Source: Macrostomum hystrix
Lineage: Eukaryota; Animalia; Platyhelminthes
Assembly (NCBI GenBank): GCA_950097015.1
Contig: CATNEN010000039.1
Location: 15,748,001 to 15,812,000, forward strand
Direction of reading: 5' to 3'
DNA: 64,000 nucleotides
Shown here: piece by piece, positions 2,142 to 63,061 of the stretch
How the letters are laid out: every line of letters starts with the position of its first letter
Numbering within the stretch: position 1 is the stretch's first letter
Position numbers and translations under genes: made by a program
Notes under the pieces: model-generated
Database searches by the model: none
Told to the model about the DNA's origin: nothing
The model's input: only the letters and a program-made list of their open reading frames with translations

Positions 2142-2869
2142 TTAGTTGAGACTAATTTCACTAATAACTGTGACGCAATCAGATTTTTCTGCGTTTGGTT
2201 TGCATTCGTAGCGTTCATGCTTAGAAAGTTCTTTTGAAAGGTTTTTTACAAAAGTCATTAAAGATTCAAGCGATTTTTCACAGCCGATGGCGGTTTTTAA
2301 ATGCCATTTAGGTACAGAACTTTTAGCAACCATTTTAAAGCACTTTTCTGATGGAGGGCAAAAAGTTTCATAGGGACCTATCACTACTTCGAGTTGAGGG
2401 TCATTGCCATTCGGCAGCAATTTATAGTAGTGAAGGCATGGTACCAGATCACGTTCTAGATCATTGGTCAAGTTAAATACACTCGCTTTATTGCAGTTAT
2501 CACCCGTGCAGTCTTTGCAATATTTTGTAGAGGTACAGGCGCCGCAACCAAATTTCAGTAGCTAAAAAATTTTCCGCATAGGGCAAAATTTATAGGGCAA
2601 ACTGTTGCTTTATGATTTCGAATTGATATGCTAATTTAATTAGTTTAATTCATTCGGTCGCTCACCACTTGTTTCCTTTTTTCATTAGGTTGATATTCCA
2701 CGTAACACTTGGTGACGTTGTCAGCACAATTTCTATCAAAATAATCATTCTTATATTCATAAAATGGTACTTTATGATTCCTCGACCAGGTACATTTAAT
2801 ACAATCAGCCAGCTGGATGCCTCCAAGTGCAAGATACACGCAAACAATAACCAGCTTCATAGTCGTCAT
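2142..2869 (-). CDS. Tandem three-finger (Ly6/uPAR-like) protein, copy 1, secreted form, 207 aa; exons 2869-2666 and 2561-2142
   Basis: Signal peptide MTTMKLVIVCVYLALGGIQLADC; phase-0 GT-AG intron 2665-2562 joins ...EKRKQV|LLKFGCGACTSTKYCKDCTGDNCN; second Cys domain LVPC..FCPPSEKC..IGCE..RYECKPNAEKSDC; no hydrophobic tail. Confidence 0.85.
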
Positions 2870-3599
2870 GATTGCCAGCTTCGATTCCGAATAGCCCAGT
2901 TAGATTTGGTCGATTAGCTGGCAGGTGGCAGTTGAATTGCTGATCAGGTTTGCAACGGCTGAGTAGAATCGGCCAGAATGCTTAGTCGAGTGTTGTCAGT
3001 TGTTGGATTTGATTCTTCGTTTCGGGCCGCTGCCCCTTCAATATGCTGCAGAAAATACAGGTCCGAGCCGGCTCGGTCTATGGCAGCGCTGGCTGACACA
3101 GGGGGCCCGCCTATTGTCTATGTCAAATTTCAGCTCTACTTTGCTTTTTTCATGCACGACTTTTCTGAGATGAACTTTAGTGTTGTACTATTAGAAATCT
3201 TTCTAGCTTATTGGAGTTTCTCTCTAACAAAGAAGTATTGCACTTTACAAGCATCGAATGTATGTTTCCCATGGGCCCATATTTGACAGGCTTTTTAGAC
3301 AGAGCCAGGTTAACGAAAGCTAGTGACTTTTCTTCAATCACATCAAATCGTTCTTTCTCCGATTCCTCCGCACCTCAGATCCCGCATCCTATGCCACAGA
3401 TCCCATATCCCAGAAAATACATCCAATAGGGGATACGCTAATCCTACATCCGAGATCCTATATCTCATTCGACAGACCTCAGATCCCAAATCGCAGTTCC
3501 TGAATCGCACATTCCGAATCGTGATTGAAAAAGCACTTTTAAGTTCCAATCAACCCGAATAATAATAGAGAGCGGAGGGACAGGATTTTGAAGTGTCTG

Positions 3600-3725
3600 C
3601 CCGTGCAACAAGGTGACGTAATGCGACGTAGCAATGTGACGTAAATGCAACGTCACTGCGACGTAAAAAATGCTAGTCACAATTACGTCACAGCAAGCAA
3701 ATTTTGTGACGTCGCATTTGCAACC
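3600..3725 (+). mobile_element. Probable terminus of a CMC/EnSpm-like DNA transposon (second copy 38946-39070)
   Basis: Begins CCCGTGCAAC exactly where homology with the copy-2 upstream region ends (GAAGTGTCTG at 3599 vs 12160), followed by clustered GACGT/ACGTC subterminal repeats in both orientations. The other end was not located. Confidence 0.45.
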
Positions 3726-4362
3726 ATATGCAACCAATTAAGCGCGCATCTGGTCACTTGTATATATGGCTGGCCACACTGCAGAAAAAATAAGTAAGCA
3801 AAGACAGAGGGATTTATTTTTTATTCCGGCATTCTAGCATAGTTAATTGGGACCCAAAATGGCCCTATTGCCTTGTCGCCCTACCTAGGACCCTAGCTAT
3901 ATAAGGGTCCGAGAGGCGCAATATATATTTATTAGTCATTACGAGTAATTAGTATTTTATTAAAAAATACTCAATCGTTCCATGGTGGAATCGCTGCACA
4001 TTGGGCTAAAATAGAAATAGTTTCTACCACATAGATACATATTCGTCTAACTGCATGGGAAAAGGGCGTGGACCAATAGAAACGAGTAGCATGGATCGAT
4101 TGAGTATTTTGTTCTTAATTGGATTTTTGCTTTAGGTTTATCAAAACGCTTATGACAATGATACTACTGGTGTACTTCCTCAGTAGTGATAGTGGGCTAT
4201 GTGGCTATGTTTTGAGTAAAATAATGCAAGTAAGCATGGTAAGAAGCAAAAAAAATCTAGCAAAGATGGGGCATGGGAGGGAAGGTTCTGCTGGTTAGCT
4301 AAGCATTTTTTCAGCTAGAAATTCCTACGCTTGGATTGTTTAGCATCCTCAACCTCATCCAT

Positions 4363-5310
4363 CATCCGTCATCCTCAAGGCCAACTTCGTCATGGTCATC
4401 CTGGTCTGTGTCGTCGAAGCTCAATGCAGTTGGAAGCCCAGCAGTCCTCGCCTCTCTCTTCGCCACGTTCGCCATATGCTTCAGAACGCTGCCGACATGG
4501 CTGCTTGGTGCCTGGCCTCCGAGCTGTTGCCGTGGAATGCGCGATCCCTGAATGACCTCTGAAAAAATGCATTTAAGCTAAAGTATATGGTAACTTTTTG
4601 GAACATTTTCGGATTGTTATTGAATGTATGGTAACTATTTAGAAAACATATTTTTACCAAAATATGCCAAGTTAATTCAAAGGAGACATGAGGAAGGACA
4701 ACAATTTCGCGATAAGTTTGATCCCAACGCACGATTATAATAATATCGAAGTTAGTTAGCCAAAAAAACTTACTGCAAATTGCATCGAGCACATCTTTTG
4801 GAAGTGGTCTCTTGACTTGGTCTTGACCTGAACCAGCAGCAGCAGAGTGTGTCCTCTTGCGGCCTCTTGAGCCTGACTTTGGGAGACGAAGCCCATGACG
4901 GTCGACTCCAGAGAAACAATTCGCTCTGTGAGCATTTGGATCCACGCTGAAAACCACACGAATGGGTGTATAATGTATAAAATAAAATGAACAACAGATG
5001 AACCGACATGCAGTTAAAGAACATCATTCGTCTTACCTTGCATATGAGGGCAGTTGACAGCTTTGCCTCCCAGCAGCTATATCTGAATCAGCTTGCTTAG
5101 GCCGTGTAGTCGAATGGTTGGACGATGGTTGAACAGACAACACAGAGTGCAGTTGGAGTCCGAATCATCAGCATTACTATTGGCAAAAACATCCGCTCTG
5201 GAAAAATGAGCAGAAGCCGCTGTAGGAGTACCCGGCCCAATAGTGTTTTTTGAACTGGCAGATCTGGCAGCAGCTGGACTCTTGGGCACGGGCATCTTAG
5301 AATAATGTGG
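4363..5310 (-). pseudogene. Spliced gene remnant, possibly a DUF4806/BEN-like transposon accessory protein (internally deleted relative to 39715-41170)
   Basis: Exon-like blocks ...QDQVKRPLPKDVLDAIC|GTAAGT and TTTCAG|EVIQGSRIPRQQLGGQAPSSHVGSVLKHMANVAKREAR...acidic tail*; domain call made by eye only. Confidence 0.35.
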
Positions 5311-5619
5311 TGCTGAAGCAAATTATTCTCAAGCAAATTATACTCAAGCAAATTATTTAATAAAACTATGCATCGCTCTCGTTACATTATTGTTAGCATT
5401 CCAATCACGCTAACGCAGTAATTTCTAAAATGCTATATGAACATAGGAGCATTCTTTGGTCCTATGGTAGCTTACTTCGTCCAAAGCTGGGACAAACCGA
5501 TTCGGACTAAACGTTAAACACCTATGGAACTTTTGCGGATTTATTTGAGGCTGTCCAAACGCAGATTAACAAAGAGCTCAAGTGTGGGCGGTATCGCGAG
5601 TGCCCGACCGGCGGGCGTC

Positions 5620-6035
5620 CAAAATTGGTCAGCGCCCTTGGAGACCTGCCCAAAGATAGTGATCGTGTGCGCCTTATTCCCGACTGCAGTCGGCCTTTGA
5701 ATAACTATTTGAACTCCAGATGGGTCTGCCAGGAGAAGCTGCGATTCACGTGCGCCGATAACTTTGCGAGAAAGCTGTCCAGAGGCTGTTTTATGACAAA
5801 GGTGGACCTCAGCGAAGCGTACCGCGCCTGTGGTATTCACCCGACGATTTCAGTCAGGCGGGAATTAAGTTCCGCTTCGGGCAGTCCAAAGCAGTACCTA
5901 CATGTACGACACCCGTCTGCCGTTCGGCGCTGCGGCATCTGTTACCTGTTTTCATCATCTTAGCAATGCTGTGAGATTAACGATGCTGCGCAGAGGCTTC
6001 GTAGGCACCGAGTCCTACTTGGACGATTTCGCCAG
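5620..6035 (+). mobile_element. DIRS/Ngaro-type (tyrosine-recombinase retrotransposon) reverse-transcriptase remnant
   Basis: VSALG.LPKDSDRVRLIPDCSRP, KVDLSEAYR, (frameshift) YDTRLPFGAAAS...YLDDF, typical DIRS RT motifs. Confidence 0.75.
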
Positions 6036-6609
6036 GCTTAGGCCTAGTAAACTCGAATCGAGACCATTAAAACATGCACATGAAATATTACCGAATTTAG
6101 ATCCGAATTCGATCATTTTGTGATTGAATTTTCTAACTCAAATCTAACAGATTAAATATAAAACAAGAATTACTACCAAATTTTGTTTATACAATGTGCG
6201 ACACTACTAAGCGCAAATTGAGCATGCTGAGAAAGCATCCAGCATGCTCTATCGTCGAATTTAACGTGTCTAAAAATGTGTTTTTTTACCGTTATAATGT
6301 AAACACGGTTGTAAAATTATACAACGAAGGGTAAATTCAAAACGAATTCAATTGAATTTTCTAATTCTAAAACGATGAGCTTTGCATAATTTTGCTTGGA
6401 ATTAAAAAAGCAAAGCTTCTGAAATTTTTTAATCATGCTTCGTCTTTGGATTTCAACAAGAAATCCGCAACTGAGTAACAAGAATTCAATATCCGTTAAT
6501 TTTTGTGTAACCTACTGCATGACGCCATTTCATCGTTGATATACAATATCTGAAGCTAAAAAAATGACAGAGATGCGCAAATGTATTATAGAAAGTCAAT
6601 CTACTATGC

Positions 6610-7022
6610 CAGAGGGGCTCACTGACCGGAAGATCATTTTCCACTCCGACAGTCAAGCCGCCCTCGACCGCAGCACCACCTGCTCTAAGACCACCTTGGA
6701 CTGCAACGCCCAGCTCAACGAGCTGGCGCGGGCCAACGAGGTCAAGCTCAAATGGATCCCAGGTCACGCTGGCTTCCCAGGGAATGAGATGGCGGACCAG
6801 CTCGCAAGAGCCTGGCGCTCCTATCCCCGCCACTGTGACCAACCTCAAGCTGAAGCGCTGGATGGAGGCACAGCACCTGCAAGCAGTCCAGGGCAGCGGT
6901 CCCATGTCCGTCTCACCGCCCTCGCAAAGCCCTCTTAAAGCTGAACCGCAGAGATCTCCGCGCAGTCAGCATGGCCCTCTCAGGGCATGGCTGTTTTTCT
7001 CGGCATCGCCATCTCCAGGACC
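6610..7022 (+). mobile_element. LINE RNase H fragment
   Basis: IIFHSDSQAAL...KLKWIPGHAGFPGNEMADQLAR; same family as 13880-14560. Confidence 0.8.
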
Positions 7023-8247
7023 AACAAAAGTTTTTAGCCACGAAGAATGCAATCATTTCTGGATTTACCACAAAGCTTTAGCTGGCTGAATTAAAACAAT
7101 ATTATAGTACTGATGCCTATAGAATAAGCGGATGCTGCTAGATATTTATTTACCATCGGAATTATGCAAAACTCAAAATAACATACAAAATAACACAATA
7201 ACTCGGAAGTAAGTCCGATTCGTCTATTCTTAGCATCACAAAATTCCGGGTCAAATTCAGAAAGCGCACACGAAGAAAATGTGAACGAAGGATTTGGTCC
7301 ATAACTTTCGAACCCTTTGAGCAAAATGCTTACTTTTGCACAGGGTTGTAAAAAATATGAGCTTGAGGTGGTACAAATGTGGTACAGGCCGTATATTCAA
7401 TTTTTGGAGTGAGAAGACCATTTGCTACCTTGAATGACTTCAGAACTTCAGACGATGATTTTTTGCTTATTAAAGCTCATTCAGATCAACTTTTGAGCTC
7501 AAAAGATGTGCATTTTGCTGAAATTTTATAAGGTAAAAATGGTTCAAGAATCTAGTCAGAAGCGAGGACGCAATTGATCAGCCCAATGCCAGCCGCATCG
7601 AATTTTTAAATCCAGAAATTTGAAGGCTTCAAAAGTGACAGGATTAGCACTATCAATCTGGTCAAAATCTATTAGCAAAGACGGATTTTGCAAGTGGTAC
7701 AACTGATTTTAAAAAGTGATGCGGCTGGGTTGCTGCTAGCGAAAAGTGCGTATGCAACGGTACCTCCAGCAGTTTCAGCAGGGCATGGCGGCGTCCGTCG
7801 TGTTTGTGGATGGTGTAGGGACTCTAGTTGAACTTCCTCATTCTGTCTCGTTGTGAATCTTTGTCGCTTACCCTCCTTTTCTTTGTTATCTTTTTCCCTT
7901 CCTCTTCGTTTCGCTGCTGCTTTCGCCAAGTTTGTGTCTCTCTCGTGCATCTTTGTTCGTGCTTTGGGGGCACAAAATGACTACTTTCAGACATCAAGCC
8001 AGGTTTAACTGATCATTGTGCAGCTTGCACGGAGTGTTAAAAAATAATTCGGAACAGATATATGTATATATTTTGTCATAAAATATGACAAGCCTGGCAT
8101 GCTTGGGATTTGCAACGGAAATCGGTCAGTTTTTGTTATTGAGAGGAGACTTTTAGCGCCTTGATTTTTCAGCACATTTTCAGACACAGCTTTCGGTACA
8201 TTCAGTACACAAAACATGAAAAGAAGATTCAAAATAAAATTAAAAAA

Positions 8248-11748: not shown

Positions 11749-12281
11749 CTATTAGAAATCTTTCTAGCTTATTGGAGTTTCTCTCTAACAAAGAAGCATT
11801 GAACTTTACAAGCATCGAATGAATGTTTCCCATGGGCCCATATTTGACAGACTCTTTAGACAGAGCCAGGTTAACGAAAGCTAGTGACTTTTCTTCAATC
11901 ACATCAAATCGTTCTTTCTCAGATTCCTCCGCACCTCAGATCCCGCATCCTATGCCACGGATCCCATATCCCAGAAATACATCCAATATGGGATACAGCT
12001 GATCCTACATCCGAGATCCTATATCTCATTCGACAGACCTCAGATCCCAAATCGCAGATCCTGAATCGCACATTCCGAATCGTGATTGAAAAAGCACTTT
12101 TAAGTTCCAATCAACCCGAATAATAATAGAGAGCGGAGGGACAGGATTTTGAAGTGTCTGGGTGGGGTCTCACAATGAGTCATGCTCATGGGATTGTCTA
12201 TACACTGTCCTTAACACCACTTTGCAAAACGATGCTGCGGAAGCAACGACTGACAAGACTGAAGAGGCACAAAGAAAAGTC

Positions 12282-12665
12282 TTGGGTGTCTAACAGTATT
12301 GGGTGTCTAACAGTATTGGGTGTCTAACAGTATTGGGTGTCTAACAGTATTGGGTGTCTAACAGTATTGGGTGTCTAACAGTATTGGGTGTCTAACAGTA
12401 TTGGGTGTCTAACAGTATTGGGTGTCTAACAGTATTGGGTGTCTAACAGTATTGGGTGTCTAACAGTATTGGGTGTCTAACAGTATTGGGTGTCTAACAG
12501 TATTGGGTGTCTAACAGTATTGGGTGTCTAACAGTATTGGGTGTCTAACAGTATTGGGTGTCTAACAGTATTGGATGTCTAACAGTATTGGGTATCTAAC
12601 AGTATTGGGTGTTTAACAGTATTGGATGTCTAACAGTATTGGATGTCTAACAGTATTGGGTGTCC
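12282..12665. repeat. 17-bp minisatellite (GGGTGTCTAACAGTATT)n
   Basis: About 22 head-to-tail units with no spacers. Confidence 0.97.
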
Positions 12666-16172: not shown

Positions 16173-19100
16173 TGTCGCGGAAATCATTATTGTTAAACTG
16201 TTATCTATCTATTATCGATTTTTCCCCGTGTCCCTTTCCATATTGACCCCCCTCCAGTCTAGCTTCTGCACCCACCTTGTTTTCTCTCCCTCTACGCACG
16301 TTATTGTATGTTAACCCCAATGTACATCCACCCAGGGTTTCGTACCCTCTTTTGTCTCTCCTCACTGTCGGCCCCAATTCCTTCCTTGCATATCGAAATA
16401 TAATATAGTTAGAGGCCCGGGGCAAGGCCTTTGTCGGTCGTTCACATTTCTAGCCCGTTCAAATCAATACCATTAGTTAACCTCATTTTCTTAACATGGC
16501 GCCCGATGAAATTGAACTTTTGTGAATTTTACGTGCATATCGACTGTGTTAGTCGCATTCGTCTTTCGCCATATCGGACTCGTTGGCGCTAGTGTCTCGA
16601 ATATCATTAGCGTCAGTTTCGACTCGTATCTAGTATATGCCAGCCTATCTTTAGTGAACCCGTTTTCACTTGAGCTGGTTGCTTCGTTAGAATTCTGCTC
16701 GCACTAGGACTCAGCTTCGTCGGCCCGATTTCGGAGTTCTCTGGTCTACTGGTCAACTCTCGTCAGCAGCAGTAAGGTTCTCGGATCCGTAGTCACGTCT
16801 CGTTCTCGGTGGATCGGGTGACCGGCTGTCTCATTCTTTCGTGTCGCCAGGGTGCTCAAAAGCGGTCCGACTGTAATCAACGCGTCCTAAGCTAAGCAAA
16901 ATTTCGTGCCATTCTGCTATACTAATTCTCTAATTGCTCGTTTTCCACTTTGTTTTGTTTTCGCTGAACGCTATCCCCAATTATTGTTATCAAAAAATTT
17001 CGGTTGTTCTGGGTCCATTGCGCTCCCTCCTTGGCTCACTCATTGTTGCTACCCGTTGCTGGTCGCGTTTCCGTTCCTGATGTCGTCTCAGATGAAGAAG
17101 AGGTCAGTTATTCGTGCAGCAGTCACTCGGACTATCAATAGAGCCGAGAAAATCTTGAGTTTGGAATCTCTGGATGCGGAGGCAAAGGCTGATGCGGAAG
17201 CATACATAGACTTACTCGAGAACAAGCTGGAAGCTCTGGAAGAGGCTGACGCATTAGTTCAGGAAGAGCTGGCGGAAGATAAGATGGAAGCTGAGCTTGA
17301 AGAAAGTTATGAATATTCGTTTCGTGGTCGCAAGTATATCAAACTCTTAGGAAGCATTTTAGCATCAACTGTGAAATCGCATTCGCCGGATGCTCCTTCG
17401 CAATCTGAGCATAGCGCTCAACCTCAGGCTCAGGCCCTTCCTCAGGTCAAACTTCCTAAGCGTGAACTGCCCACATTCAACGGCACAATCGCTGGTTGGC
17501 AACCCTTTTGGGATCAATTCTCTTCTTCTGTGGATTCAAATTCGTCCCTCGCTGAGGTTGACAAGTTTAATTATCTGCTTGCATCTCTTTCCGAATCGGC
17601 AAAGGCTTGCATTCGGGGTCTCGCTGTGACTGGTGCCAATTATCAGGCTGCTATCGAGATTCTCACAGGTCGCTTTGGCAAGCCAGATCTCATCATTAGA
17701 GACCTCATGCACCAGCTTTCCGAACGGACACTTCTCTGTCCAGCCTTCAACGATTTCACGACGATGTTTCGGCTGCTGTCCGCAGCCTAGAAGCTCGAGG
17801 CGTGAATCCGACCTCTTATGAGAGTCTGTTGCTGCCGAACTTGCTCAAGCGATGTCCCGACGAGTTTAGACTGGAGCTTCTTAAATCAGCGAATCAAGCA
17901 GGTGCGGATTGTGATTCCATCAAAGAGTTCTTGCGTCTTCTGAGTGCGGACATTGAGGTTCGCGAGAAGGCTGCCGTCATTGGCAAAAGGTCAGGTCAAG
18001 ATCGGGATCGGCTTGCCAGCCTGCCAAAGCCTTCGCTTTCTACCTTAGCAGTCCAATCCGGCCCGAAGGATTTCTCGAGGGGGTCTGCGGGACAGGTGTA
18101 CTGCACCTACTGCGGGTTAGGGCACAGGTCCGAAGCGTGCAACAAGTTTGCCACGGTTGCTAGTCGCCGCGCCCGCCTGCAACAAGAGAATCGCTGTTTT
18201 CGCTGCTTGCGCACGGGACATGGGCTTCGCATGTGCAATGATTCACGGAAATGCAGAAACTGCGGAGGAGCTCATCACGTGAGCATTTGCGTCCCTGCAA
18301 CTCATACACCTAAAACTAGCGGTCAGCACATACATGTAGCTCAAAATGAAGGCGGGAAAAAGGGGAAAAGACCTATGTCACGTGACCAGTGTCTACCGAC
18401 CTCCGCCGAGCAGACAGATGCCACACTTCAAAAACAGTCTACGTCTACGCTCAACAACTCGAACCCAGCGTCAGCTGCTGGTTCCTCGGTCACTGTGTGT
18501 GCCACACGAGATGATCGGAAATTGTCGGGTTCACCGACGATCTCTTCAAACCATTTTACAGCGACAATGTTTGTCAGTAGTAATCCATCAGTTGCCCTTC
18601 CCGTTGCCAAGGCTATTCTGCTTAGCCCTGACGGTCAACGAGAGCTTCTAGTTCGGGTTCTGTTGGACACGGCTAGCAATAGGTCATACATTAGGGAAGA
18701 TGTGTGTGAGCTCTTAGGCATCGAGTCCGCCACAACTGAATCATTGACGGTATCGACCTTCACAGGTATCAAGGCTACAATTGCATCAGGTAGCGTCTCA
18801 ATCTCAATTCGAAAAATTGATTTGCACCAGGTTCTGAAATTGCGTGCTAATGTTGTCAAAGAGATCTGCCAGCCTCAGCGCTCAGTCTTAGTGAACGAAT
18901 TCCCTCACCTGCAAGGCTTGGACTTAGCGGATCCGTACGACCCGCGTGATGCAAGCACACCGATCTCGATCCTAATTGGCGCTGATCACTACTACGATAT
19001 TGTCGGTGGTGAAGTCGTTCGTGGGCGTGATGGACCAGCAGCTGTGTCGTCCAAGCTGGGATTCGTTCTCTGTGGACCAGTGAAACTTGGAGACACATTG

Positions 19101-41170: not shown

Positions 41171-41487
41171 TAATGTGGTGCTGAAGCAAATTATTCTCAA
41201 GCAAATTATACTCAAGCAAATTATTTAATAAAACTATGCATCGCTCTCGTTACATTATTGTTAGCATTCCAATCACGCTAACGCAGTAATTTCTAAAATG
41301 CTATATGAACATAGGAGCATTCTTTGGTCCTATGGTAGCTTACTTCGTCCAAAGCTGGGACAAACCGATTCGGACTAAACGTTAAACACCTATGGAACTT
41401 TTGCGGATTTATTTGAGGCTGTCCAAACGCAGATTAACAAAGAGCTCAAGTGTGGGCGGTATCGCGAGTGCCCGACCGGCGGGCGTC

Positions 41488-45647: not shown

Positions 45648-46848
45648 CATCCTGGAGAGAAAGCCTTCAGGCAAGCTGTCCTTCAAGCAGCTAAGCACCA
45701 CATCCTAGCTAGGAAACTTCAAAATTTTCGTCCTCACTTCCCGCCGGAAGCCGACACCCTCTGCAAGCAAAGAGACCTCATTCGCACGGATAACCCGCAC
45801 GGAAGCTATCACCATCATTCAAGACGAAATCAACCAGATCTGCTCCAACTTTCGCCGGGCGAACTCGAGGGAAAAGCTTGAGCAGTTCAGCATCAAGCAC
45901 CTGGTCTCTGAACTGTGGCGAACCATCAAGAACCTCAGCGGTAAAGGCCACAAAGAAAACTCCGCTGGCATCCTTTTTGACGAGCTTCCCTTAACTGATC
46001 CCAAACGCATTGCCAAGGCCTCCAACAGGCAGTTCTTTGATCAAATTCATCCGGCCACCCCGGAAGACAGACGCCTCAAAAGGGACATGCTTTCCCCCAC
46101 CAATGGCTTCCTGCTCACGTCCAAGTGACGTCACGTCGGCCATCAAAAGCTCTTCGCCGTTCGAAGCCACCGGACCGGATGGCCTTTCCCCAATCGTCCT
46201 GAAGCATCTTGGACCAAGGGGAATTGCCTTCCTCTGCTGCCTATTCAATCTGAGCCTTACCACCAGTATATCGTTCATAGCACCTGGACATCTGCGAAGG
46301 TAGTGCCTCTTCTCAAAGGAACAAAGATGCTACCTGCAGCTCCTCCTACAGGCCAATCTCGATCCTTTCTCCAGCCGCCAAATTGCTGGAAAATTGCCTG
46401 CTGTCCACCTTTCAGAGCGCACTCCCGCTCCCTACCTGGCAGCATGGCTTCCGCGCGGGGCACTCCACCGCCACCGCCCTTACCAGCCTCACCAGCTCCA
46501 TCAGCAACGGCCTTAGCCAACCTAAACCTGCTGAGAGGACTCTGCTCATCGCACTCGATCTGCAAAAAGCGTTCGACAAAGTCAATCACGCCAAGCTCCT
46601 CCGGATGCTCTTCAACTCCAGCCTGCCGAAATGCCTCACCAGGTGGCTCAGTGCGTACCTGTGCGGTCGGAGCACGAGAGTCCTCTTCCGCGGCTCGCTC
46701 TCCTCGGCCAGGCGTCTCAGAGCGGGCGTGCCTCAGGGAGGAGTTCTGTCCGCGCTCCTCTTTGCCTACTACATGAGCGACATCCCGGCTCCTCCTGGCC
46801 AGATCCAGCTGACTCAATACGCTGACGACCTCACAGTCTGCACGAGAG
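45648..46848 (+). mobile_element. Decayed LINE (I/Jockey-like) RT fragment
   Basis: ATGPDGLSP..LKHL, QHGFRAGHST, ALDLQKAFDKVNH, GVPQGGVLS, QYADDL; truncated where the copy-5 upstream sequence starts. Confidence 0.88.
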
Positions 46849-47084
46849 GCCCCTGTGTGAGCCAGCGCTGCCATAGACCGAGCCGGCTCGCACCTGCATT
46901 TTCTGCAGCATATTGAAGAGGCAGCGGCCCGAAACGAAGAATCAAATCCAACAACTGACAACACTCGACTAAGCATTCTGGCCGATTCTACTCAGCCGTT
47001 GCAAACCTGATCAGCAATTCAACTGCCACCTGCCAGCTAATCGACCAAATCTAACTGGGCTATTCGGAATCGAAGCTGGCAATC

Positions 47085-47945
47085 ATGACGACTATGAAGC
47101 TAGTTATTGTTTGCGTGTTTCTTGCACTTGGAGGCATCCAGCTGGCTGATTGTATTAAATTTATCTCGTCGAAAAATGGAAGAGTAAAATTCTCTGTATA
47201 TAAGAATGACGATACTGATACAGATTGTAGTCCTGCCAACGTCACCAAGTGTTACGTGAATTATCAACCTGAAGGTTCAACCGTCAATACTGACGAAGTG
47301 GTGAGCGACCGAATGAATAAAACTAATTTAATTAGCATATCAATTCGAAATCATAAAGCAACAGTTCGCCCTATAAATTTCGCCCTATGCGGAAACTTTT
47401 TTTAGAAACTGAAATATGGTTGCGGGGCCTGTCCTGCTACAAATTATTGCAAAGACTGCACGGGTGATAAATGCAATAAAGCGAGTGTATTTAACTTGAT
47501 CAATGATCTAGAACGTGATCTGGTACAATGCATTTCCTACGTGAAACGAGATATAGTTCCACAGCCGGGACATTTCTCTGAAAATTTTTGCCCTCCATCA
47601 GAAAAGTGCATTAAACTGATTTCTAAATCTAATTACCTCACTGAAACCTATATCAACTGTGAACATTACGAGTATGTCAACGATAAATATAAATGCAACC
47701 AAGAATACTCCTCACCGTCGCATTTTGTGGAGTTTGAACACTACGAATGTACAAAAAACGCAGTAAACTCTAATTGTAGCGAATTACTAATGCGTGCAAC
47801 CACGACTGCTGCGGGTACAACCACGACTGGTGCTTGGCACCCGATTATGCTGTTCGTATTCGTACTGCTTGGCTGCACGATGCTGATAGCGATTCTGATT
47901 GCCCTGTTTATTTGGTGCCATTATAATTTTTTTGTTTTTCTTTGA
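47085..47945 (+). CDS. Tandem three-finger protein, copy 5, anchored form, 251 aa; exons 47085-47300 and 47406-47945
   Basis: Signal peptide; intron 47301-47405 (GTGAGC...TTTTAG); KLKYGCGACPATNYCKDCTGDKCN; most divergent second domain; hydrophobic tail; first Cys replaced by Phe (IKF). Confidence 0.85.
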
Positions 47946-49194
47946 TTTTATTAAAAATTTAGTTTTCATGTTGTGATGTATTGAATGCATTGAAACTGAA
48001 GTCATTATTGAATGTATTTTTTAACACAAGCTGCACAATGATCAGTTAAACCTGGCTTGATGTTTGAAGGTAGTCATTTTGAGCACCCAAAATAGCCGCT
48101 TTGGACTGCCCGAAACGGTGTAGAGTGTAGAATTACGGTACTATTTCTTTTTAACCAATCATGCGCTAACTGCTCTACTCATTTCGCTTAAGTAGTATTT
48201 TTAGAAAAAGCGAACCAGAAAACATATAAGTACAGCATGTGATTCATTTCACCAAAAAAGGAAAGCGAATCAATCAAAAAGTCATGTGATTACTATTAAT
48301 AGTATCAAATCAATTTTTATGTCATAAGAAATCCACAATCCCACCAATCATGTTACCCAAAATCAATCAAAAGGTCACGAAAGCGATAATCCATCTTTTT
48401 GTGCTTCTACTGCTTCAGTTGTTAAAAAGTCTATCCTCTCAAGTTGTCAAGCGTTGACCCAAACATTTTGACACAATTTTGACACCTGTACACTGAACGC
48501 ACTCATCGAACCCGAGAGGGTCAGATTCTCTATAAATACGAGAACTATAAATCGTACAAGAACTCCGGAGCGAGCCCAGATTCAGAGTCTCGCCGAGAAG
48601 AGAAAAACGGAGAGAAGAATCTGAAGTGGATCGGACTCCAGGTCCAAGACTTGTGGTAAGAGTTCCTTGAGTTATCCTAATTAATTATTTATTAATTAGA
48701 AGGCTCATTCTTGAGCTAAGTCAAACCTCTCCAAGTAATCGTTAAACCAACGATTAAAAGCGTAGTCACAGACGTGTGATTACATTGAATATATTACAAA
48801 GGGTGAGCGCCAGACTCGTGGTAAAACCTACCAGAGCTGGTAAGAAGGAACTCTACAAGTAGCTATTGGTTAACCGACATCAACGACAAATCGGCGTCAA
48901 GAAGACACAACCCCGAACCTAGGTTTCCTAATTTCTATTGGTCCGTTGTAACTACGAAAGAAACCAAAGGAGAATAAACTAAACTCCTATTGTATTCGAA
49001 CGATCCAGATACCTGAAGAGTAACAAGAAGCCCAAAGCATCAGAAAACTCGAAGCCGGCCGCAACCGAAGAGAACAAGAGAACCACTAAACAAAAGAAGG
49101 TAAGATCTACAACTTCTACTAATCAAGTACTGGGGCACCCAGCAGTTGCTGGAAGTGATAAATTCCTAAAAGAGAAACAAGGAACTTATCAACG

Positions 49195-50113: not shown

Positions 50114-50694
50114 TCAGGTCAGAAATGCGTTCTTCTCAGCCAAAATGTGCGAACCGCACTGCGGACACCTTTGAGCTCCCAGGACGCACTGACGGCAGTA
50201 CAGGAGGTGCGCGCACGGAAGCAGGACCACATCGCGCGACCGCGTCTTGCACATTGTGCAAAATGGACTGCCTTCAATTAGTTCGCTTTGTGGTTTCGCT
50301 TCCACACTAGGAGCTTGTACTGAGGCGCTGTGGGTTATTGTTTGAAGCAGGTAAAAATTGCTCAGATTAAGCAGCGAGAAAAGACAAATTGAGGTCGAGG
50401 TAAAAATTGATGTCGCTCACCTGCCGCATGGTCTGATTGTTGTGCCAATCGGCTCATTTTGAATTAAATTAGGCTGTGTCCTTGTGCTGCCTATGCTGTA
50501 GCCTTGACTAGCGCCCTGACTCAAGGAGCTTAGAAGACTCGACACAATTTCAGCCAGAGCGGAGACCTCCTCATTGAAGGACTGCAGAATCTCTATCAGC
50601 TCACCAGTTTTCCAGCCGTTCTCTTTGAAATTAGTTTTAAAGGCCAGGCGAAGTGCTCCTAGGATTGTTTGGGATTTTGAGAATCCAAAAGATT
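50114..50694 (-). pseudogene. 5'-truncated gene with a C-terminal IAP/MDM2-type RING finger; exons ~50694-50421 and 50327-50114
   Basis: CTMCKTRSRDVVLLPCAHLLYCRQC....RCPQC...FLT*; a phase-2 GT-AG intron at 50420-50328 keeps the frame; the upstream exon starts ESFGFS (UBA-like) at a repeat boundary. Confidence 0.7.
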
Positions 50695-54589: not shown

Positions 54590-55631
54590 GGGTGAATCCT
54601 TTTGGTGGCCTAATGGTTGAGCCCAGCGGCCTGGCTGAGACCGATCGTCTGCGCGACTGGTACCAGCAAGTGGGCCGTCGGCTCGCATCGTTTCGCAGCA
54701 TTGGGCCAGCTGGCGAGTTCAAAGGCGGCTCTGGTGGTGTCGACCTCAATGGAAGTGGCGGCAGCTGCGCTTTTCGCAGCCTGCGGGACATTGTCAGCGG
54801 CCAGAGCCAGCACTCGGACGGAAGAGGCGATGCGGCCTTCAACTGAGTAGTCACTGTTTGCTCGCTGGGACGTGACAATTGCGTCTACAAGGTTTGACTT
54901 CGAAGCTATGACAAAAGTGGTTATTCAGCTCAAGCTGAGTCTAAATTTAAGGTTTCAAAGTCCGCAAATCTTCAAAGTCTTCAAATCCACCATTCCGAAT
55001 GCCAGGCGTGTCCCCGGCCCGACTGCTTCAAGAAGGTCGTGGAAGCAGAAAGTGGCACTGCACCAAGTGCCAGGCTCTGCAATCCGGCTTCAAATGGCGC
55101 TTCGTCTTGAGCGTGAGGCTGGCTGATTTCTCCTGCAGCAAGTGGGCCACCTGCTTCGGGGTGAGCTCACGGGTGGCTGGTTTTCCCTTTGTCACGCAAT
55201 TCGCCAACTCGGCTGCCTCGCAGCTTTCCACACCTCTGTTTGCACCGCTCACCGTTCCAGCCGATTGTCACCGTCTCAAATGCTGCTTCCCCTTTCCCTT
55301 CAGCTCTGCAATACATTTCGCTCTTGTATTTTCGTAATTTCTCTGCATGTCTTCTGCATATTCTGCTTTTCTGCATTTCCCTACAGAGCACCTGGACCGC
55401 CTGCTCTATGGCGGTGGCGGCGGCAGCGCCAAGGAGGCCAAGGCGGTGTTCGCGGCCGCCACGTACCAGACGCTGGTGTTTTCTCTGCACGCCCGGATGG
55501 AGACGTTCAACGACGAGCTGCGCCAACGGCTGGTGGTGCAGGACGTCCGGCCGGTGAATGCGATCGACGACAGCCTGGCGCTGATTCGCCAGATTGAAGC
55601 CGCCGCTGCAAGCACGACTCGGCTGCAGTGA
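54590..55631 (+). pseudogene. RPA1: Decayed RPA70 (replication protein A large subunit) 3' exons
   Basis: AETDRLRDWY, FRSLRDI, VVTV..LGRDNCVYK|ACPRPDCFKKV (intron 54892-55005), (frameshift) WHCTKC...FKWRFVLSVRLADFSCSKWATCF, VFAAATYQTLVFSLHARMETFNDELRQRLVVQDVRPV; matches the RPA70 DBD-B end and the zinc-ribbon DBD-C; in-frame TGA at 54844. Confidence 0.8.
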
Positions 55632-57600: not shown

Positions 57601-59750
57601 CTAGTTGGGATGAGTGAGCCAGTAATGACCAAGAGGAAGCCGAGCGTAAGCGAGGCTTTCTCTTGGTCATTACGGATGCGATATCTCATCTTGATAAGAC
57701 GTAGCCAACGTGTCGGGATAGAAAAGCACGTTTTTCAACTTTTAACGATTGCCGCTTTTGCCCAGTTGAACCGATTTGGATGCGTTTTTTGCAAAACATG
57801 TAAAATACTCGGGTCTATGCACTGATGTGAAAATCGTTGCCATGGCAACGCGTTTTGGTTGCCATGGCAACCAAAAACATGATTTTTTGGACGTGACGAA
57901 AAATGGTCTTTGGCCGCTTAAGCCGGCATTTTATGGTATCGCCAAGTGGCTCTATCCAGTCGATGCGGGCTATAGAAGCCTACAATGATTTGATATGGAT
58001 TTTTTCTTGCTGACCCATCTTTTGGGTCAAAGGGTCAAAAACAGGTTTTTGAGGTTGAAAAAATGTGCATGTTTTTAAACTTTCTCACCACGAGATCGTA
58101 ACCCTAACACATAGGCCTACTTGATGGTGGAGAATTTTTTTGACCGTGTGCTTTTGTGATTGAAATAAATGTGCACTTTTAAAGTACTTTTAGTACAGGG
58201 TGCACTTTGGACGCCTCTATGACACAGACATGTGACTTGAATCGCATTTCAACACATGTCAACCAACTTTCTTGGGTGTCGCCTATACGAAAATGTTGGT
58301 TTCAGACTGATTGAATGTTGTTTACCGAAGATGTGGGTAATTAAATCCTAAAAACGTGATTTTGGTCATTTTTAGTCATTTTTCGAGGTACAAAACTGCA
58401 TGGCCAGAACGTATTTGGTGTGTGATTCGAATGCGGCTTCAGTTTTTAGAAGCGCAACAGATGTGCGCACAAAGTGTATATTTAGAATTTTTTTATCATC
58501 CACTTGTCCCGGAGGTGGATGCGAAAATCCCAAATTTTGACCCCCCGGGGAGCTAAAACATTCAAAACAGGATCAGTCATAACTTTTGATTACTGCATCC
58601 GTTGGTGTTGCGCTTACCGTTGCTGAATTGCATTTAAGACCCTCTTTCATTTGATACTAGACTCGTGTACACACATTCAGTAGTTGGCCATCTGTACTAA
58701 GATATGTACCTGTACAGGTGTACGTAAGAGAGAAAAAGTTTGCCATTTCCGCCCCTACGATAGTGCACTTTGTAGTATTGAACTGCAAATGGTGTCAATA
58801 GACGCATGTGGATGTTTGAAAGAGAATGACATGTCAACTTAAAGTCAGAGTCACATTCAAGATGCTAAAGCTTGATTTGCAGTTGGAAAACGTGTTATTT
58901 TCGTAGAAATTAACAAAAATCATGCATTTTTTCGAACCTATAAAGGTAAATTTTGTAAAAACGGTCTTGCGATTTTTTTTATGTACAGAGACGAATTGTA
59001 CCTAACACTATGCTGCATCTGATGAGCAGCTGCATTAGTGTTGAAAAATTCGATTTTTCGAAATGGAAGGCACATTGCAGCAATTTTGACACCCGGGCCT
59101 ATGCCAATTTCTCATAAGATTACTCATAAGATTTTAGTAGTGCGATTTCTCGAATCAAGTTTGGTGTCGTTGGATAGCATTTAGAGCCCTCTTCAAAAGG
59201 AAAGCATCCATGCCTGTCTGTAAAAATTGATTGAGCGACAGTACACGATGCAGTACTTTTAGGAGAAGCTGCATTTTCGAGTTTACTCAAATGAAATGTT
59301 GTTCTTTGCTCCAATGTCATTGAAAATGGTTTAAATTGATGCGTCTAGATGTTTCCAAGACAATGACATGTCACTTAAAGCTGTGCATCACATTTCAGAT
59401 GTACAGTATTGATTTTCATTTATAAAATGTGATTTTTTTTCATGCACACAAATAATGCAACCTTGAGTGAAAATTGTGCTAAAATGGATAAGTAATCGCA
59501 TCGCATGTATGTTAGTTTCGCATTTAAATTGTGTGCCCAGCATTGAAATGATTATGTTGCTTTAGTCTTGGAAAGTTTAATTATCTGATGAAGTATGAAT
59601 GTGAAGTAAGCAGTAATTAATGAAAGATCATCCTGTTTTTGCGATCAACTTTTTTGCATCACATGAAAATTGAAACCGAAATTTTATTAGTTGAAGGCTT
59701 GAAGGTTCACTTAAAGTACACAGGCTACAGCTCTCCATGCATTTGTCAGT
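57601..59750 (-). mobile_element. Second Helitron-like repeat (far end approximate)
   Basis: Hairpin GTAATGACCAAGAG...CTCTTGGTCATTAC next to a terminal CTAG followed by T on the minus strand; homologous to 50695 onward. Confidence 0.5.
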
Positions 59751-59754
59751 GTTT

Positions 59755-61630
59755 TTTGTGGCCTTCGCCGAGTTCTTCGCCGCCATAGTCAACGCGCCGC
59801 CACCCCCGCTGCCCAACATCCTGACGCTGCCGCCAGAGACGCCGTTGCCGTCAGAGGACAGTTTTAACGTTGCACCAGTCACCATGGCTGAAGTCTTAAT
59901 GCTCGCCCAGAAGACGCCGGGCGGCAAGGCGCTGGGTCCGGACGAGGTGCCCATCGAGGCGCTGCGCATCCACTGTGTGGCCAGTGAGGTCGCCCGTGTG
60001 ATGAACCGCGTGCTCTCCGGTGAGGTGGCACCCACTGAGTGGACCATGGCGCACATCATCGCCATTCCAAAGAAGCCGGGCACTACGCGGCTAGACGAGC
60101 ACCGAGGCATCTGCCTGCAATCCTGTGCTGCGAAGTTGTTCAACCGGATGCTGCTATCGCGGTTGCAACCCGTGCTGGATCCCTACCTGCGACCTGAGCA
60201 GAACGGGTTTCGGCCCCACCGTGGCACAGTGACGCAGATCCTAGCTCTTCGCCGAATCATCGAGGAGGCGCGCACGCGCCAGTTGGACCTGATCGTTGTC
60301 TTCATTGACTTCATGAAGGCTTTCGACTCGGTTGCGAGGGCTGCGCTCCCACATGTGCTCCGCGCGTACCATGTGCCAGAACAGCTGATCTCCGCCATCA
60401 TGGCGTTGTACTGTGCTACGAGAGCAGCTGTGATGACGCCGGACGGCCTGTCGGACCCCTTCGAGACATCCTCCGGGGTGCTCCAGGGGGACACTCTAGC
60501 GCCGTTCCTGTTCGTCCTGGTGCTTGACTGGGTGCTACGAACTGCTCTTCCTACCGACGAAGACGGCTTCCTACTGCGGCGACGCGTGGGTCGACGTCAA
60601 CCGGAGAAGCGGCTCAGCGTGCTTGGCTACGCCGATGACCTCGCCCTGCTGTCCTCGACCGTAGAGGACGCCCAGCGCCAGCTGGATAAGCTGGTTAGCG
60701 CTGCAGCGAGCGTCGGCCTGTTGGTCAACACGAAGAAGACCGTTGTGCTCTGCGTGCCGGGCGACATCGAGGCCGCAATTTTCTGCCGAAGCGCTGACGG
60801 GCAGGTAACGGAGCTTCCGCGCTGTCAACAGTTCGTCTACCTCGGCGGTCTGGTACCTGACGTCCGCGAAGATCTGAGGCGTCGCCGCCGGTACGCTTGG
60901 GCTGCCTTTCGTTCTGTGAGGGCGGTCCTGCAGTCCGAGGCCCTACCTGATCGCCAGAGGGCGGCGCTGTTCCAGGCGGTGGTCGAGACCGTCCTGTTGT
61001 ACAACGCCGAGACGTGGACGCTGACTGATTCGCTAGAACAGCAAGTCAACGCGGCGCACGCTGGCCTGCTGCGTGCCGCCTTTAAGATCAGCGACGAGCG
61101 GATCACTAACGCGGCACTCTATCGTCGCGCCGGCCTGGCCCGTCCGAGTGAACTGCTGCGACTTCGGCGACTCCAGCTTGCAGGCCACATCATCCGCGCC
61201 GAGTCCTACTGCCCGCAGCCGGTGCAGGAGGTGCTGCTGCTAACGCTGCAGGCACCCTACCGGCGCGGCCAGGCCCGAACTCGGCGTTTCGTCGACTGCC
61301 TGCTGGCCGATGCTGGCGCCCCGGACACTGCCGGCGGTGCGGCCTTTGTTCGCGCCCAGGCTCTGAAGCGTGCACTGTGACGCTGCCTTTTCCACCTGAC
61401 AGCGTACTTTGTTGTTGTTGTTGTTTTTGTGGGGACGAGATTTCTGACTATTGAGGTTTGAGTGTACATTAGCTGGGGCCAAGCTGTGCTGTGCCGCCCG
61501 ATCGATAAAAATCTAAGGGGAGGGGGGTTCTCTCAGCCTGAGTGTCTGTGGCTTAAATGGGGCTATAGCGGGCCAGCCCCTCCCTTTTGTTTAATGTAAA
61601 TGGCCCGGCTCAGTTTATCTTATCTCTCTC
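59755..61630 (+). mobile_element. 5'-truncated RTE-clade LINE with an open RT ORF (59737-61380)
   Basis: KALGPDEVP, QNGFRPHR, FIDFMKAFDSV, GVLQGDTLAPFLF, YADD, YLG, VLLYNAETWTL, LAGHIIR; 3' UTR runs to about TTATCTTATC where the copy-6 flank homology resumes. Confidence 0.9.
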
Positions 61631-62069
61631 GTGTTTGTGGATGGTGTAGGGACTCTAGTTGAACTTCCTCAATCTGTCTCATTGTGACTCTTTGTCGCTT
61701 ACCCTCCTTTTCTTTGTTGTCTTTGTCCCTTCCTCTTCGTTTCGCTGCTGCTTTCGCCAAGTTTGTGCCTCTTTCGTGCCTCTTTGTTCGTGCTTTGGGG
61801 GCACAAAATGACTACTTTCAGACATCAAGCCAGGTTTAACTGATCATTGTGCAGCTTGCGTGGAGTGTTAAAAAATAAGCACAGAAATATATAAATTTTG
61901 TTATAAAATATTACAAGCCTGGCATGCTTGAGATATGCAACGGAAATCGGTCAGTTTTTTTATTGAGAGGAGACTTTTAGCGCCTTGATTTTTACAGCAC
62001 ATTTTCAGACAGAACTTCAATACATCCAATACATCAAAACATGAAAAGAATATTCACAAGAAAAAAAAG

Positions 62070-63061
62070 TCAAAAACAAAAAGAACCGCGCCAAATAAAC
62101 AGCGCAAGCAGAATCGCTAGCAGCATCGTGCAGCCCAGCAGTACGGAAACGAGCCGCAAACTCTGGTGCCAAGCACCCGCAGCAGTCGGGGCTGCACCCG
62201 CAGCAGTCGGGGCTGCACCCGCGACAGTCCTGGCTGCACCCGCAGCAGTCATGGTTGCACCCGCAGCAGTCGTGGTTGCACCCGCAGCAGTCGTGGTTGC
62301 ACCTGCGGCAGTCCTGGCTGCACCCTCAGCAGCCGTGTTTGCAGGCGGAGGGAACATTCTTAATTTGCTACAATTAGACTTCGCTGCGTTTGGTCTACAT
62401 TCGTAGCGTTCAAACTCATGTTGGTTCTTGACCACTTGATAAAAACTGTTGATCGAGATTTCACAGCCGATAAAGGTATTAATTCGCCTAACGTTTCGCT
62501 CTTTAGAAACCATTTTAAGGCACTTTTCTGATGGAGGACAAAAAATTTCAAATGGACCTAGCACGTCTTCGCGTTGAGACTCATTGTCATTCGTCAGCAA
62601 TTTCGCGTAAAGAAGGCATGGTACCAGATCACGTTCTAGATCATTGATCAAGCTAAATACACTCGCTTTATTGCAGTTATCACCCGTACAGTCTTTGCAA
62701 TATTTTGTAGCAGGACAGGCGCCGCAATCATATTTCAGTCGCTAAAAAAGTTTCCGCATAGGGCAAAATTTATAGGGAAAACTGTTGCTTTATGATTTTG
62801 AATTGATATGCAAATTAAATTAGTTTAATTCATTTGGTCGCTCACCACTTCGTCAGTATTGGCAGTTGAACCTTCAGGTTGATAATCCACGTAACACTTG
62901 GTGTCTTTGGCAGGAGTACAATCTGTAGCAGTATCGTCATTCTTATATTTATAAAATGATACTTTTTTATTTTTCGACCAGACACATTTTATACAATCAG
63001 CCAGCTGAATGTTTTCAAGTGCAAGAAACACGCAAACAATAACCAGCTTCATAGCCGTCAT
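62070..63061 (-). CDS. Tandem three-finger protein, copy 6, anchored form with a long repeat stalk, 295 aa; exons 63061-62846 and 62741-62070
   Basis: Signal peptide; intron 62845-62742; RLKYDCGACPATKYCKDCTGDNCN; stalk of 7-aa AAGA(T/A)xT repeats; hydrophobic tail. Confidence 0.88.

Follow-up and report, generated by a model that had tools for sequence, protein, structure and literature searches.

A transcribed tandem family of predicted two-domain Ly6/uPAR-like proteins with variable, exchanged fingers in the flatworm Macrostomum hystrix

What do six variable copies of one gene encode in the free-living flatworm Macrostomum hystrix, and could their products serve in recognition? The copies are found in a stretch of 64,000 nucleotides (nt) of contig CATNEN010000039.1 (assembly GCA_950097015.1, positions 15,748,001 to 15,812,000 of the forward strand), which is called the window here, and they occupy about 61 kb of it. 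A first-pass annotation, made by a model from the letters of the DNA, had described them as three-finger, or Ly6/uPAR (LU), genes and as an undescribed diversified recognition system. The reading preferred here, which can be given an even chance, is that they form a transcribed tandem family, that the products have two LU domains as predicted, that the fingers of these domains are reshuffled between copies, and that diversified extracellular binding surfaces are the likely outcome.

The genes were found with a degenerate pattern for the linker peptide KASVFN, and each locus was then read on its coding strand. Six of the ten matches have no mismatch or one and mark the six copies (2472, 8671, 37818, 44592, and 62652 on the minus strand and 47478 on the plus strand). 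The remaining four carry two mismatches and look like chance, with 3.5 such matches expected. One gene plan is common to all six copies. There are two exons and a single phase-0 GT..AG intron with a GTGAGC donor and a TTTTTAG end, which is 104 nt long in five copies and 105 nt long in c5. Exon 1 begins with ATGAC(G/A).. and closes at the donor, and exon 2 reaches the stop codon. The first-pass annotation had obtained six paralogues by splicing a phase-0 intron of ~104 nt; all six are present, and its outer borders, 2142 and 63061, are exact.

Five copies share the minus strand and one is inverted. Copy c1 (exon 1 2869-2666, intron 2665-2562 (104 nt), exon 2 2561-2142 including the stop; minus strand) is predicted to encode a soluble form of 207 residues with the C-terminal end ..SDCVTVISEISLN. 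The other soluble copy, c3 (exon 1 38215-38012, intron 38011-37908, exon 2 37907-37524; minus strand), has a predicted product of 195 residues. Anchored forms are predicted for c2 (exon 1 9080-8865, intron 8864-8761, exon 2 8760-8248; minus strand; 242 codons), c4 (exon 1 45007-44786, intron 44785-44682, exon 2 44681-44160; minus strand; 247 residues), c5 (exon 1 47085-47300, intron 47301-47405 (105 nt), exon 2 47406-47945; 251 residues), and c6 (exon 1 63061-62846, intron 62845-62742, exon 2 62741-62070; minus strand; 295 residues). The sole plus-strand copy, c5, is also the most divergent of the six. Copy c2 has an in-frame TAA at 8966-8964 (codon 39), where c5 has TAT; c2 is a candidate pseudogene, or there is an assembly error at the TAA.

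The repeated gene unit measures ~1.0-1.4 kb; it begins ~330-630 nt before the ATG and closes with the codon for the last conserved cysteine. It includes a block with the 5' untranslated region (UTR) and promoter (2870..3192, minus strand, in c1), and an equivalent block lies upstream of every copy; these blocks are 95-99% alike over ~310 nt. The 3' ends are of two types, soluble (c1 and c3) and anchored (c2, c4, and c6, with c5 more distant). A segmental duplication of ~4.3 kb, 1678-6000 against 37063-41868 at 95.7-99.6% identity, holds c1 and c3.

An LU domain has been described as 60-90 residues with 10 (or 8) plesiotypic cysteines, bonded 1-5, 2-3, 4-6, 7-8, and 9-10, and with a non-glycosylated asparagine directly after the last cysteine as an LU mark (PMC6600238). 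Elsewhere, C1-X-X-C2 and C10-N are given as Ly6 marks (PMC4492491). Inspection of the spliced alignment places nine of the ten plesiotypic cysteines of domain 1 in register, in the arrangement C1-x2-C2 .. C4-x6-C5 .. G-C6-G-A-C7 .. C8-K-D-C9 .. C10-N. C3 is missing, and C8 and C9 stand two residues apart, not adjacent. Since C3 is absent, C2 has no consensus partner, and C2 itself is lost in c5, which reads IKF for IKC (TTT for phenylalanine replaces TGT at 47160-47162). At the GCGAC block c6 reads YDCGAC. The asparagine after the last cysteine of domain 1 is found in all six copies, in the context C-N-K-A, with no N-x-S/T sequon. Domain 2 has six cysteines, placed as 1, 4, 5, 6, 9, and 10, without 2, 3, 7, and 8; c5 has seven, with an extra cysteine in finger III. 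TGF-beta receptor II likewise has no 7-8 bond, and neither do the N-terminal domains of multi-LU proteins (PMC6600238). The ectodomain has 15 cysteines in each of the six copies, with the loss and the gain in c5 offsetting each other. The mature protein comprises two domains in ~170 residues. Its signal peptide and the domain-1 fingers I and II are encoded together on exon 1; the phase-0 intron splits domain 1 between C5 and C6, and domain 2 is unsplit.

These features agree for the most part with the first-pass annotation. The signal peptide, the GCGAC..CKDCTGxxCN block, the linker KASVF(N/S)L.NDLERDLV.C, FCPPSEKC, and YEC..NA..S.C are all present as it had claimed. Its CxxC scaffold and CN end of domain 1 hold, and its count of eight cysteines has to be corrected to nine, with a mature start of D-C-I-K-C. 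The coexistence of soluble and anchored forms is likewise upheld, with two soluble copies (c1 and c3) and four with a hydrophobic tail (c2, c4, c5, and c6).

The tails of these four copies consist of a Thr/Ala/Pro-rich stalk and then a hydrophobic stretch of ~23-30 residues, which stops 0-9 residues before the stop codon. In c4, a Thr/Pro/Ala stalk is followed by the C-terminal hydrophobic anchor. The long Ala/Thr/Gly stalk of c6 comes from a 21-nt repeat of 7.9 units (62173-62337). The anchored type closes with a conserved ..FIW, to which c6 adds R-G-S-F-C-F. Because of this conserved end, a single-pass helix with a minimal tail is favored over a glycosylphosphatidylinositol (GPI) signal, and from the reading of the translations the anchor is more likely a type I helix with a tail of 2-9 residues. 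In the soluble copies, a hydrophobic reading, FCKV[T/S]LITLAVFFL.., follows the stop (37440-37526 in c3, 2039-2141 in c1). It is in frame behind two stop codons in c3 and in another frame in c1. A membrane anchor since lost may have left it as a relic, or it may result from a T-rich 3' UTR.

Parts of c1 were found in sixteen public runs from seven studies. Contigs of runs X9, X10, X11, and X5 were compared with 1900-3200, and contigs of X1, X5, X9, and X11 with 44000-48100 at a likeness of at least 96%. Contigs that skip the intron at the predicted borders were found in five runs from three studies (X5, X9, X10, and X11 for c1; X1 and X9 for c4). At c1, contigs link 2558/2559 to 2665/2666 in all four runs compared, and the depth in the intron bin 2604-2647 is zero in all four. 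One to three letters at this joint belong to paralogues with a different first codon of exon 2, and other contigs carry 32 extra letters there, which are the longer finger II of paralogues, one of them outside the window. At c4, contigs link 44679/44680 to 44786 in two of four runs (X1 and X9). The poly(A) site of the minus-strand transcript of c4 is marked in X11 by 21 T in a row before 44011. The spacer between c4 and c5 (bins 45370-46465) has zero depth in four of four runs. The spliced transcripts that the first-pass annotation had called for as a check are thus present, with the intron skipped at the predicted borders and the spacer uncovered.

Contigs of the soluble type are colinear across the stop codon into the 3' UTR of c1; therefore, both soluble and anchored forms are transcribed. 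A further anchor exon in the soluble copies was considered and rejected, since the contigs cross the stop and the 3' UTR without a break in colinearity and show no joint that would support it. The divergent domain 2 of c5 is covered almost solely from X1 at the same likeness, and parts uncovered outside X1, such as c5 domain 2 in X5, X9, and X11, are not informative on absence. Word depth of the contigs, a poor gauge of expression, reaches 260,708 in X1. Adapter-tagged contigs end 121 nt upstream of the ATG at two copies (2990 and 46964), which is a weak hint of the transcript start. Runs X1 to X8 had been guessed to be 'DNA?' (as X1 was) or '?'; the two of them that were compared, X1 and X5, behave as RNA at the cluster. 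In both, the intron is skipped, the spacer is uncovered, and the depth at the genes is very high.

The copies do not vary evenly along their length. Pairwise identity is 91-96% in the intron and 90-98.5% in the last 200 nt of the 5' flank, against 82-97% in exon 1 and 73-92% in the first 330 nt of exon 2. Nucleotide diversity (pi) was scanned in 30-column windows on the alignment of the gene unit. It is 0-0.07 in the 5' flank (from about -310 to the ATG), 0.05 in the signal peptide, 0.03-0.09 in the intron, 0.03-0.07 in the GCGAC..CN block and the linker, and 0.06 in the FCPPSEKC island, and it rises to 0.09-0.21 in the domain-1 fingers and 0.18-0.51 in the domain-2 fingers. The linker has no synonymous difference in any of the 15 pairs. 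The variation sits in the fingers between the cysteines, as had been claimed, with scaffold, signal peptide, linker, intron, and 5' flank 90-99% alike.

The nearest paralogue of a copy also switches along the gene, between the domain-1 and the domain-2 parts. In mature exon 1, c1 is closest to c3 (0.964) and farthest from c2 (0.746), and c2 goes with c5 and c6 (0.914). In domain 2, c1 pairs with c2 (0.886). The maximum chi-square method places the best breakpoint in alignment columns 577-858 for all five triplets tested, and in each triplet none of 2000 permutations attained the observed value. These columns start where exon 1 ends, take in the intron and the C-terminal block of domain 1, and close just beyond the linker. 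Copies c1 and c3 differ by 1% in their 5' flanks and by 4% in their introns, and their domain 2 has a nonsynonymous divergence (dN) of 0.22 and a synonymous divergence (dS) of 0.23. A domain 2 so divergent in a near-identical duplication was therefore exchanged as a segment and not mutated in place. The domain-1 and domain-2 parts have been exchanged between copies, and the copies are mosaics of one another.

Is this variation driven by selection? Over the mature region (Nei-Gojobori, 15 pairs), dN is 0.125-0.363, dS is 0.106-0.316, and dN/dS is 0.69-1.36, with an intron distance of 0.039-0.092. Domain 1 has a dN/dS above 1 in 13 of the 15 pairs. For finger segments set beforehand by the cysteines, mean dN over mean dS (15 pairs) is 1.61 in finger I, 1.76 in C4-C5, 3.12 in finger II, and 0.63 in the C-terminal block of domain 1. 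In domain 2, it is 0.71 in finger I, 1.67 in finger II, and 0.61 in finger III, where the alignment is gap-rich and dS may be inflated. The fingers were also compared with a noncoding reference, the intron plus 240 nt of the 5' flank. Nonsynonymous differences per site are 0.26-0.375 in the fingers against 0.033-0.128 in the noncoding DNA (Fisher p 3e-7 to 9e-25, six of six pairs). Synonymous differences per site in the fingers, 0.20-0.31, are also above the noncoding level (p 0.014 to 1e-8, six pairs). Thus, the finger codons are firmly much more diverged than the surrounding noncoding DNA, 2-9 times its level with synonymous sites included. When nonsynonymous and synonymous differences per site (pN and pS) are compared in between-group pairs, the ratio is 1.6-3.5 in the domain-1 segments (one-sided Fisher p 0.09-0.19) and 0.88-2.0 in the domain-2 fingers (p 0.24-0.79), and neither is significant.

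The fold of the proteins was explored with unaltered translations from the window as folding and profile queries, and the exon-2 products were folded. For c1, the entire exon 2 was modeled on an alignment of the six paralogues, with a predicted local distance difference test (pLDDT) value of 65 and a predicted template modeling (pTM) score of 0.51. Domain 2 of c2 alone reached a pLDDT of 73.2 and a pTM of 0.62; three of its five models were poor, with a pLDDT of 35-42. When the domain-2 model was compared with 48,161 chains, ranks 1-18 were all LU or three-finger proteins of the Ly6/uPAR and snake kinds, at weak Z scores of 3.4-4.4. Most residues of the target chains are aligned, as in 59 of 61 and 71 of 75. 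With the exon-2 model of c1, LU or three-finger families took ranks 1-8 and 22 of 50 rows. C4.4A, TEX101, CD177, and many snake toxins are among the top structural rows. Neither model gave a Foldseek row against the PDB at E ≤0.001, and the first rows for domain 2 were the photosystem I subunit PsaD at E of at least 0.16. Language-model neighbors, all below 0.9, were the TGF-beta receptor II ectodomain (0.81-0.82), DUF753, cobra cytotoxin, SLURP-1, and Toxin_TOLIP/UPAR_LY6. The clan leads in this search score 0.75-0.82, and nine of the ten best Pfam-bearing matches share the family or clan of the best one.

Searches by sequence returned nothing of this kind. Pfam was scanned at E up to 10 with four translations, exon 1 of c1 and exon 2 of c1, c2, and c5. 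Only exon 2 of c1 gave rows, both below the cut-off (IL4Ra_N 0.022 and DUF753 1.9), and for domain 2 there was no match above the cut-off to UPAR_LY6, Toxin_TOLIP, Activin_recp, ecTbetaR2, or DUF753. The exon-1 part of c1, a fragment of domain 1, had neither a Pfam nor a PDB sequence-profile match. PDB sequence profiles for exon 1, exon 2, and domain 2 had no match beyond two chance rows at E >1. A word-indexed protein search with queries of 76-244 residues had no match. A HMMER profile of exon 2 against 1.84 billion representatives gave one match at E 2.6e-4, which was rejected as a repeat artefact with nonsense Pfam rows. A metagenome scan returned 146 stretches with the pattern, of which none was confirmed. 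Internal duplication of one domain into the other was also considered and dropped; the two have no mutual sequence similarity (hhalign probability 0.3).

From the models, domain 2 is probably a divergent three-finger domain without the 2-3 and 7-8 bonds. Domain 1 is plausibly LU-like by its cysteine signature. The first-pass annotation's three-finger structure and LU identity stand in part. Domain 2 is weakly favorable through its structural ranks at low Z, Foldseek adds nothing significant, and domain 1 is assigned by its cysteines alone. The statement that no named family could be recognized is borne out at the level of sequence by the Pfam, word-indexed, and HMMER searches.

How well does the preferred reading, a reshuffled two-domain LU family with diversified binding surfaces, stand up? 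Several points weigh against it. No LU match came from Pfam, from PDB sequence profiles, or from HMMER run on 1.84 billion proteins. No copy has an asparagine after the last cysteine of domain 2 (V, I, or S is found instead). The number of ectodomain cysteines is odd, which suggests a free thiol or a covalent dimer. The typical, not obligatory, LU gene plan (PMC6600238) has a signal-peptide exon and two exons per domain with phase-1 introns, and the plan here differs from it, with two exons, a phase-0 intron, and a shared signal-peptide exon. One of the six copies, c2, is interrupted. Positive selection is suggested in domain 1, not demonstrated. Synonymous sites in the fingers, too, have diverged far beyond the intron, and old variants or relaxed loops plus homogenization of the remainder therefore explain the pattern as well as an arms race does. 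To call the cluster an undescribed diversified recognition system, as the first-pass annotation had, exceeds the evidence, with a finger dN/dS of 0.9-3.5 at a one-sided Fisher p of 0.09-0.79; a recognition role is plausible.

A less probable reading, though one with a good deal in its favor, is that these are abundant surface proteins of a coat or mucus type with no part in recognition, whose loops drift and whose copies evolve in concert through gene conversion. On this view, the contrast between conserved noncoding DNA and variable coding DNA would be a side effect of concerted evolution. The dN/dS of the mature region is 0.69-1.36 over the 15 pairs, no pairwise test rejects an omega of 1, the ratios in fingers I and III of domain 2 are below one, and synonymous divergence in the fingers is raised along with the rest. 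The recombination between copies is significant, one copy has a stop codon, four have Thr/Ala/Pro-rich stalks, and the depth of RNA contigs is very high. However, 12-13 of 15 pairs have a dN above dS in the domain-1 fingers, where mean dN over mean dS is 1.6-3.1, and the divergent variants, including domain 2 of c5, are transcribed. Loop length varies, yet 15 cysteines are found in every copy, even in c5, which swaps one; therefore, selection for a folded, functional ectodomain is indicated. The proteins could also be secreted effectors that act on another individual or organism, as a seminal-fluid or pheromone signal or as a defensive or prey-directed toxin, with the soluble c1 and c3 as the active products and the anchored copies as the ancestral state. 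This is improbable. It draws on two copies that end just past the last cysteine of domain 2, on transcripts colinear through the stop, on the hydrophobic stretch in frame behind two stops in c3, which suggests a lost anchor, on the very high contig depth, and on the many snake toxins among the nearest structural rows. A hypervariable three-finger pheromone with >30 isoforms, PMF of salamanders, does exist (PMC4029566), and snake three-finger toxins (3FTX) have been proposed to come from an anchored LY6 after loss of the membrane anchor (PMC10421932). However, anchored copies are in the majority (four of six), with transcripts of at least the c4 type, two domains in ~170 mature residues are unlike the single-domain toxins and PMF, and in a T-rich 3' UTR the hydrophobic reading may be chance.

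It is very improbable, and the least favored of the rivals, that one or both domains have a different or new disulfide-rich fold and that the cysteine pattern and the weak structural matches are coincidental. The lack of any Pfam, PDB-sequence, or HMMER relative would fit such a fold, as would the empty Foldseek result with PsaD first for domain 2, the three poor models out of five, the non-adjacent C8 and C9, a domain 2 without C-N, and the low hhalign probability between the domains. What speaks for three fingers is that all of ranks 1-18 among 48,161 chains are of this fold with most of the target aligned, that an independent language-model search gives the same clan in nine of its ten best Pfam-bearing matches, and that C1-x-x-C2, C4-x6-C5, and C10-N of domain 1 are in the LU register. 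A bolder idea, that the cluster is a germline combinatorial repertoire in which two hypervariable three-finger modules are recombined through the intron-linker joint and the odd cysteine pairs chains covalently, is a long shot, only slightly better placed than a new fold. If true, it would be a case of Ly6-fold cassette shuffling unlike the known immune or mating-type families, and chain pairing would multiply surface specificities for mate or gamete choice or for self and non-self.

The reshuffled LU family preferred here would work as follows. The signal peptide would route the protein into the secretory pathway. Four copies would be held on the cell surface by the Thr/Ala/Pro stalk and a single C-terminal hydrophobic helix, and two would be released. 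The fingers would bind a partner, for which mating or gamete molecules or microbes are the likeliest candidates. Crossing-over in the invariant middle of the gene would give new pairings of domain-1 and domain-2 finger sets, gene conversion would keep the scaffold and the regulatory DNA uniform, and selection for diversity would keep the variants.

The rest of the window consists mostly of retroelements and satellites. An apparently intact Ty3/Gypsy element (23688-28264) has a gag with a zinc knuckle and then a pol of 1269 codons (24455-28264). The GC content is 64% over 24001-28000 against ~42% around it. This pol is 97% identical to a protein named hypothetical from Macrostomum lignano, and three more of its best ten matches (57-66% identical) are named Macrostomum lignano, which points to that flatworm or a close relative as the source of the window. 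A BEL/Pao retroelement with DUF1759, Peptidase_A17, and integrase lies at 16891-22359. Reverse-transcriptase fragments of long interspersed nuclear elements (LINEs) are found at 59695-61380 and 46281-46916. The latter frame enters the flank of c5, and a LINE origin of the 5' flank was considered and dropped; homology between copies begins only at 46850, and therefore the LINE merely abuts the c5 promoter. The junction leaves only ~114 nt of shared upstream sequence in c5 before the putative transcript start. The duplication that holds c1 and c3 also holds transposon fragments (RNase H and other open frames), and the same fragments are seen again near c2 and c4 (5511-7089 and 41379-42983).

Satellite arrays were found at 12278-12664, 63455-63658, 32589-32870, 34855-36375, 345-1548, and 31491-32009. 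A related 17-nt unit (..TGGGTGTCTAAC..) lies just upstream of the c2 and c6 gene units (12278-12664 and 63455-63658). Other satellites are a 23-nt unit repeated 66 times, a 41-nt array beside c1, and a 42-nt array with an open frame rich in Ser, Arg, and His. Two other open frames encode a C3HC4 RING finger (50117-50416, minus strand, Pfam E 1e-10) and a replication factor A C-terminal domain (54951-55334, plus strand, Pfam E 1.6e-7). These may be host exons or parts of mobile elements. Rfam and tRNA scans of the window gave no match.

The family adds to the Ly6/uPAR superfamily a two-domain branch that is an orphan in sequence and visible through structure prediction and cysteine signatures. 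It is also a compact example of a conserved intron and linker that serve as the cross-over site between two variable binding modules. Regeneration, stem cells, and sexual conflict are studied in Macrostomum as a laboratory model, in which RNA interference and in situ methods are routine. Should diversifying selection act on the fingers, the family offers itself as a candidate for the recognition of mates, gametes, or microbes; otherwise, it illustrates cleanly how concerted evolution can mimic 'accelerated' exon evolution.

Is there a known system that the cluster resembles? A literature search on Macrostomum with Ly6, three-finger, uPAR, CD59, and toxin found no relevant paper; supplementary transcript lists were outside this search and might hold the genes under anonymous identifiers. 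In a survey of 387 invertebrate genomes (2026), LU proteins are reported in all of them, with one to three domains and in secreted, GPI-anchored, or transmembrane-anchored forms, and the four flatworm species have a mean of 12 LU proteins per genome (PMC13719153). Such forms are common in invertebrates, and the architecture of the cluster proteins is therefore standard. The closest flatworm example, Sm29/SmLy6D, carries two uPAR/Ly6 domains in the tegument of Schistosoma mansoni and was assigned to no family until a PSI-BLAST study (PMC4492491). Both proteins are of flatworm origin, and domain 1 here carries the C1-x-x-C2 and C10-N marks. However, Sm29 is described as the sole double-domain protein among the 11 SmLy6 of the parasite's genome, whereas here there are six variable copies, two of them soluble, with a domain 2 that has no C-N end. 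No sequence relationship to Sm29 or SmLy6 was found by the exon-2 HMMER profile or the word-based search.

The vertebrate multi-LU proteins include C4.4A, Haldisin, TEX101, CD177, uPAR, and a zebrafish cluster on chromosome 21 of seven GPI-anchored two-LU proteins (PMC6600238). These share with the cluster the tandem LU domains on an anchor, the clustered genes, and one domain without a consensus disulfide. They differ in that the mammalian N-terminal domain has no 7-8 bond, whereas here this is apparently the C-terminal domain, and in their two exons per domain with phase-1 introns, in contrast to a domain 1 split in phase 0 and an unsplit domain 2. They also have no sequence similarity to the cluster proteins.

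Snake three-finger toxins consist of a single secreted LU domain of ~60-75 residues with 8 or 10 cysteines, an adjacent pair among them. The cluster proteins are not single-domain, not all secreted, and without the adjacent pair, and the likeness is in the fold only. In their evolution, the toxins and PMF share with the cluster gene duplication, a constant cysteine scaffold, and fast-changing fingers, and the secreted forms have probably come from anchored ones. They differ from the cluster, which has two domains, mostly anchored copies, and C8-x2-C9 for the adjacent pair. For PMF, positive selection has been demonstrated (PMC4029566), in contrast to the cluster.

The evolutionary pattern has an almost identical counterpart in the SSSGP-1 salivary effectors of the Hessian fly, in which seven genes (six in tandem and one inverted) lie in 15 kb (PMC2955719). 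Promoter, UTRs, signal peptide, and intron are conserved there and the mature region is diversified, which is ascribed to positive selection and concerted homogenization (PMC2955719). Even the single inverted copy recurs. The proteins and folds are unrelated, and SSSGP-1 are small secreted effectors of a plant parasite, whereas the cluster has tethered forms and exchanges the modules of a two-domain protein. Macrostomum hystrix possesses a sequence-orphan, lineage-restricted family of a well-known kind that evolves in a known mode, and what sets it apart most is that two variable domains are reshuffled across a conserved intron-linker region.

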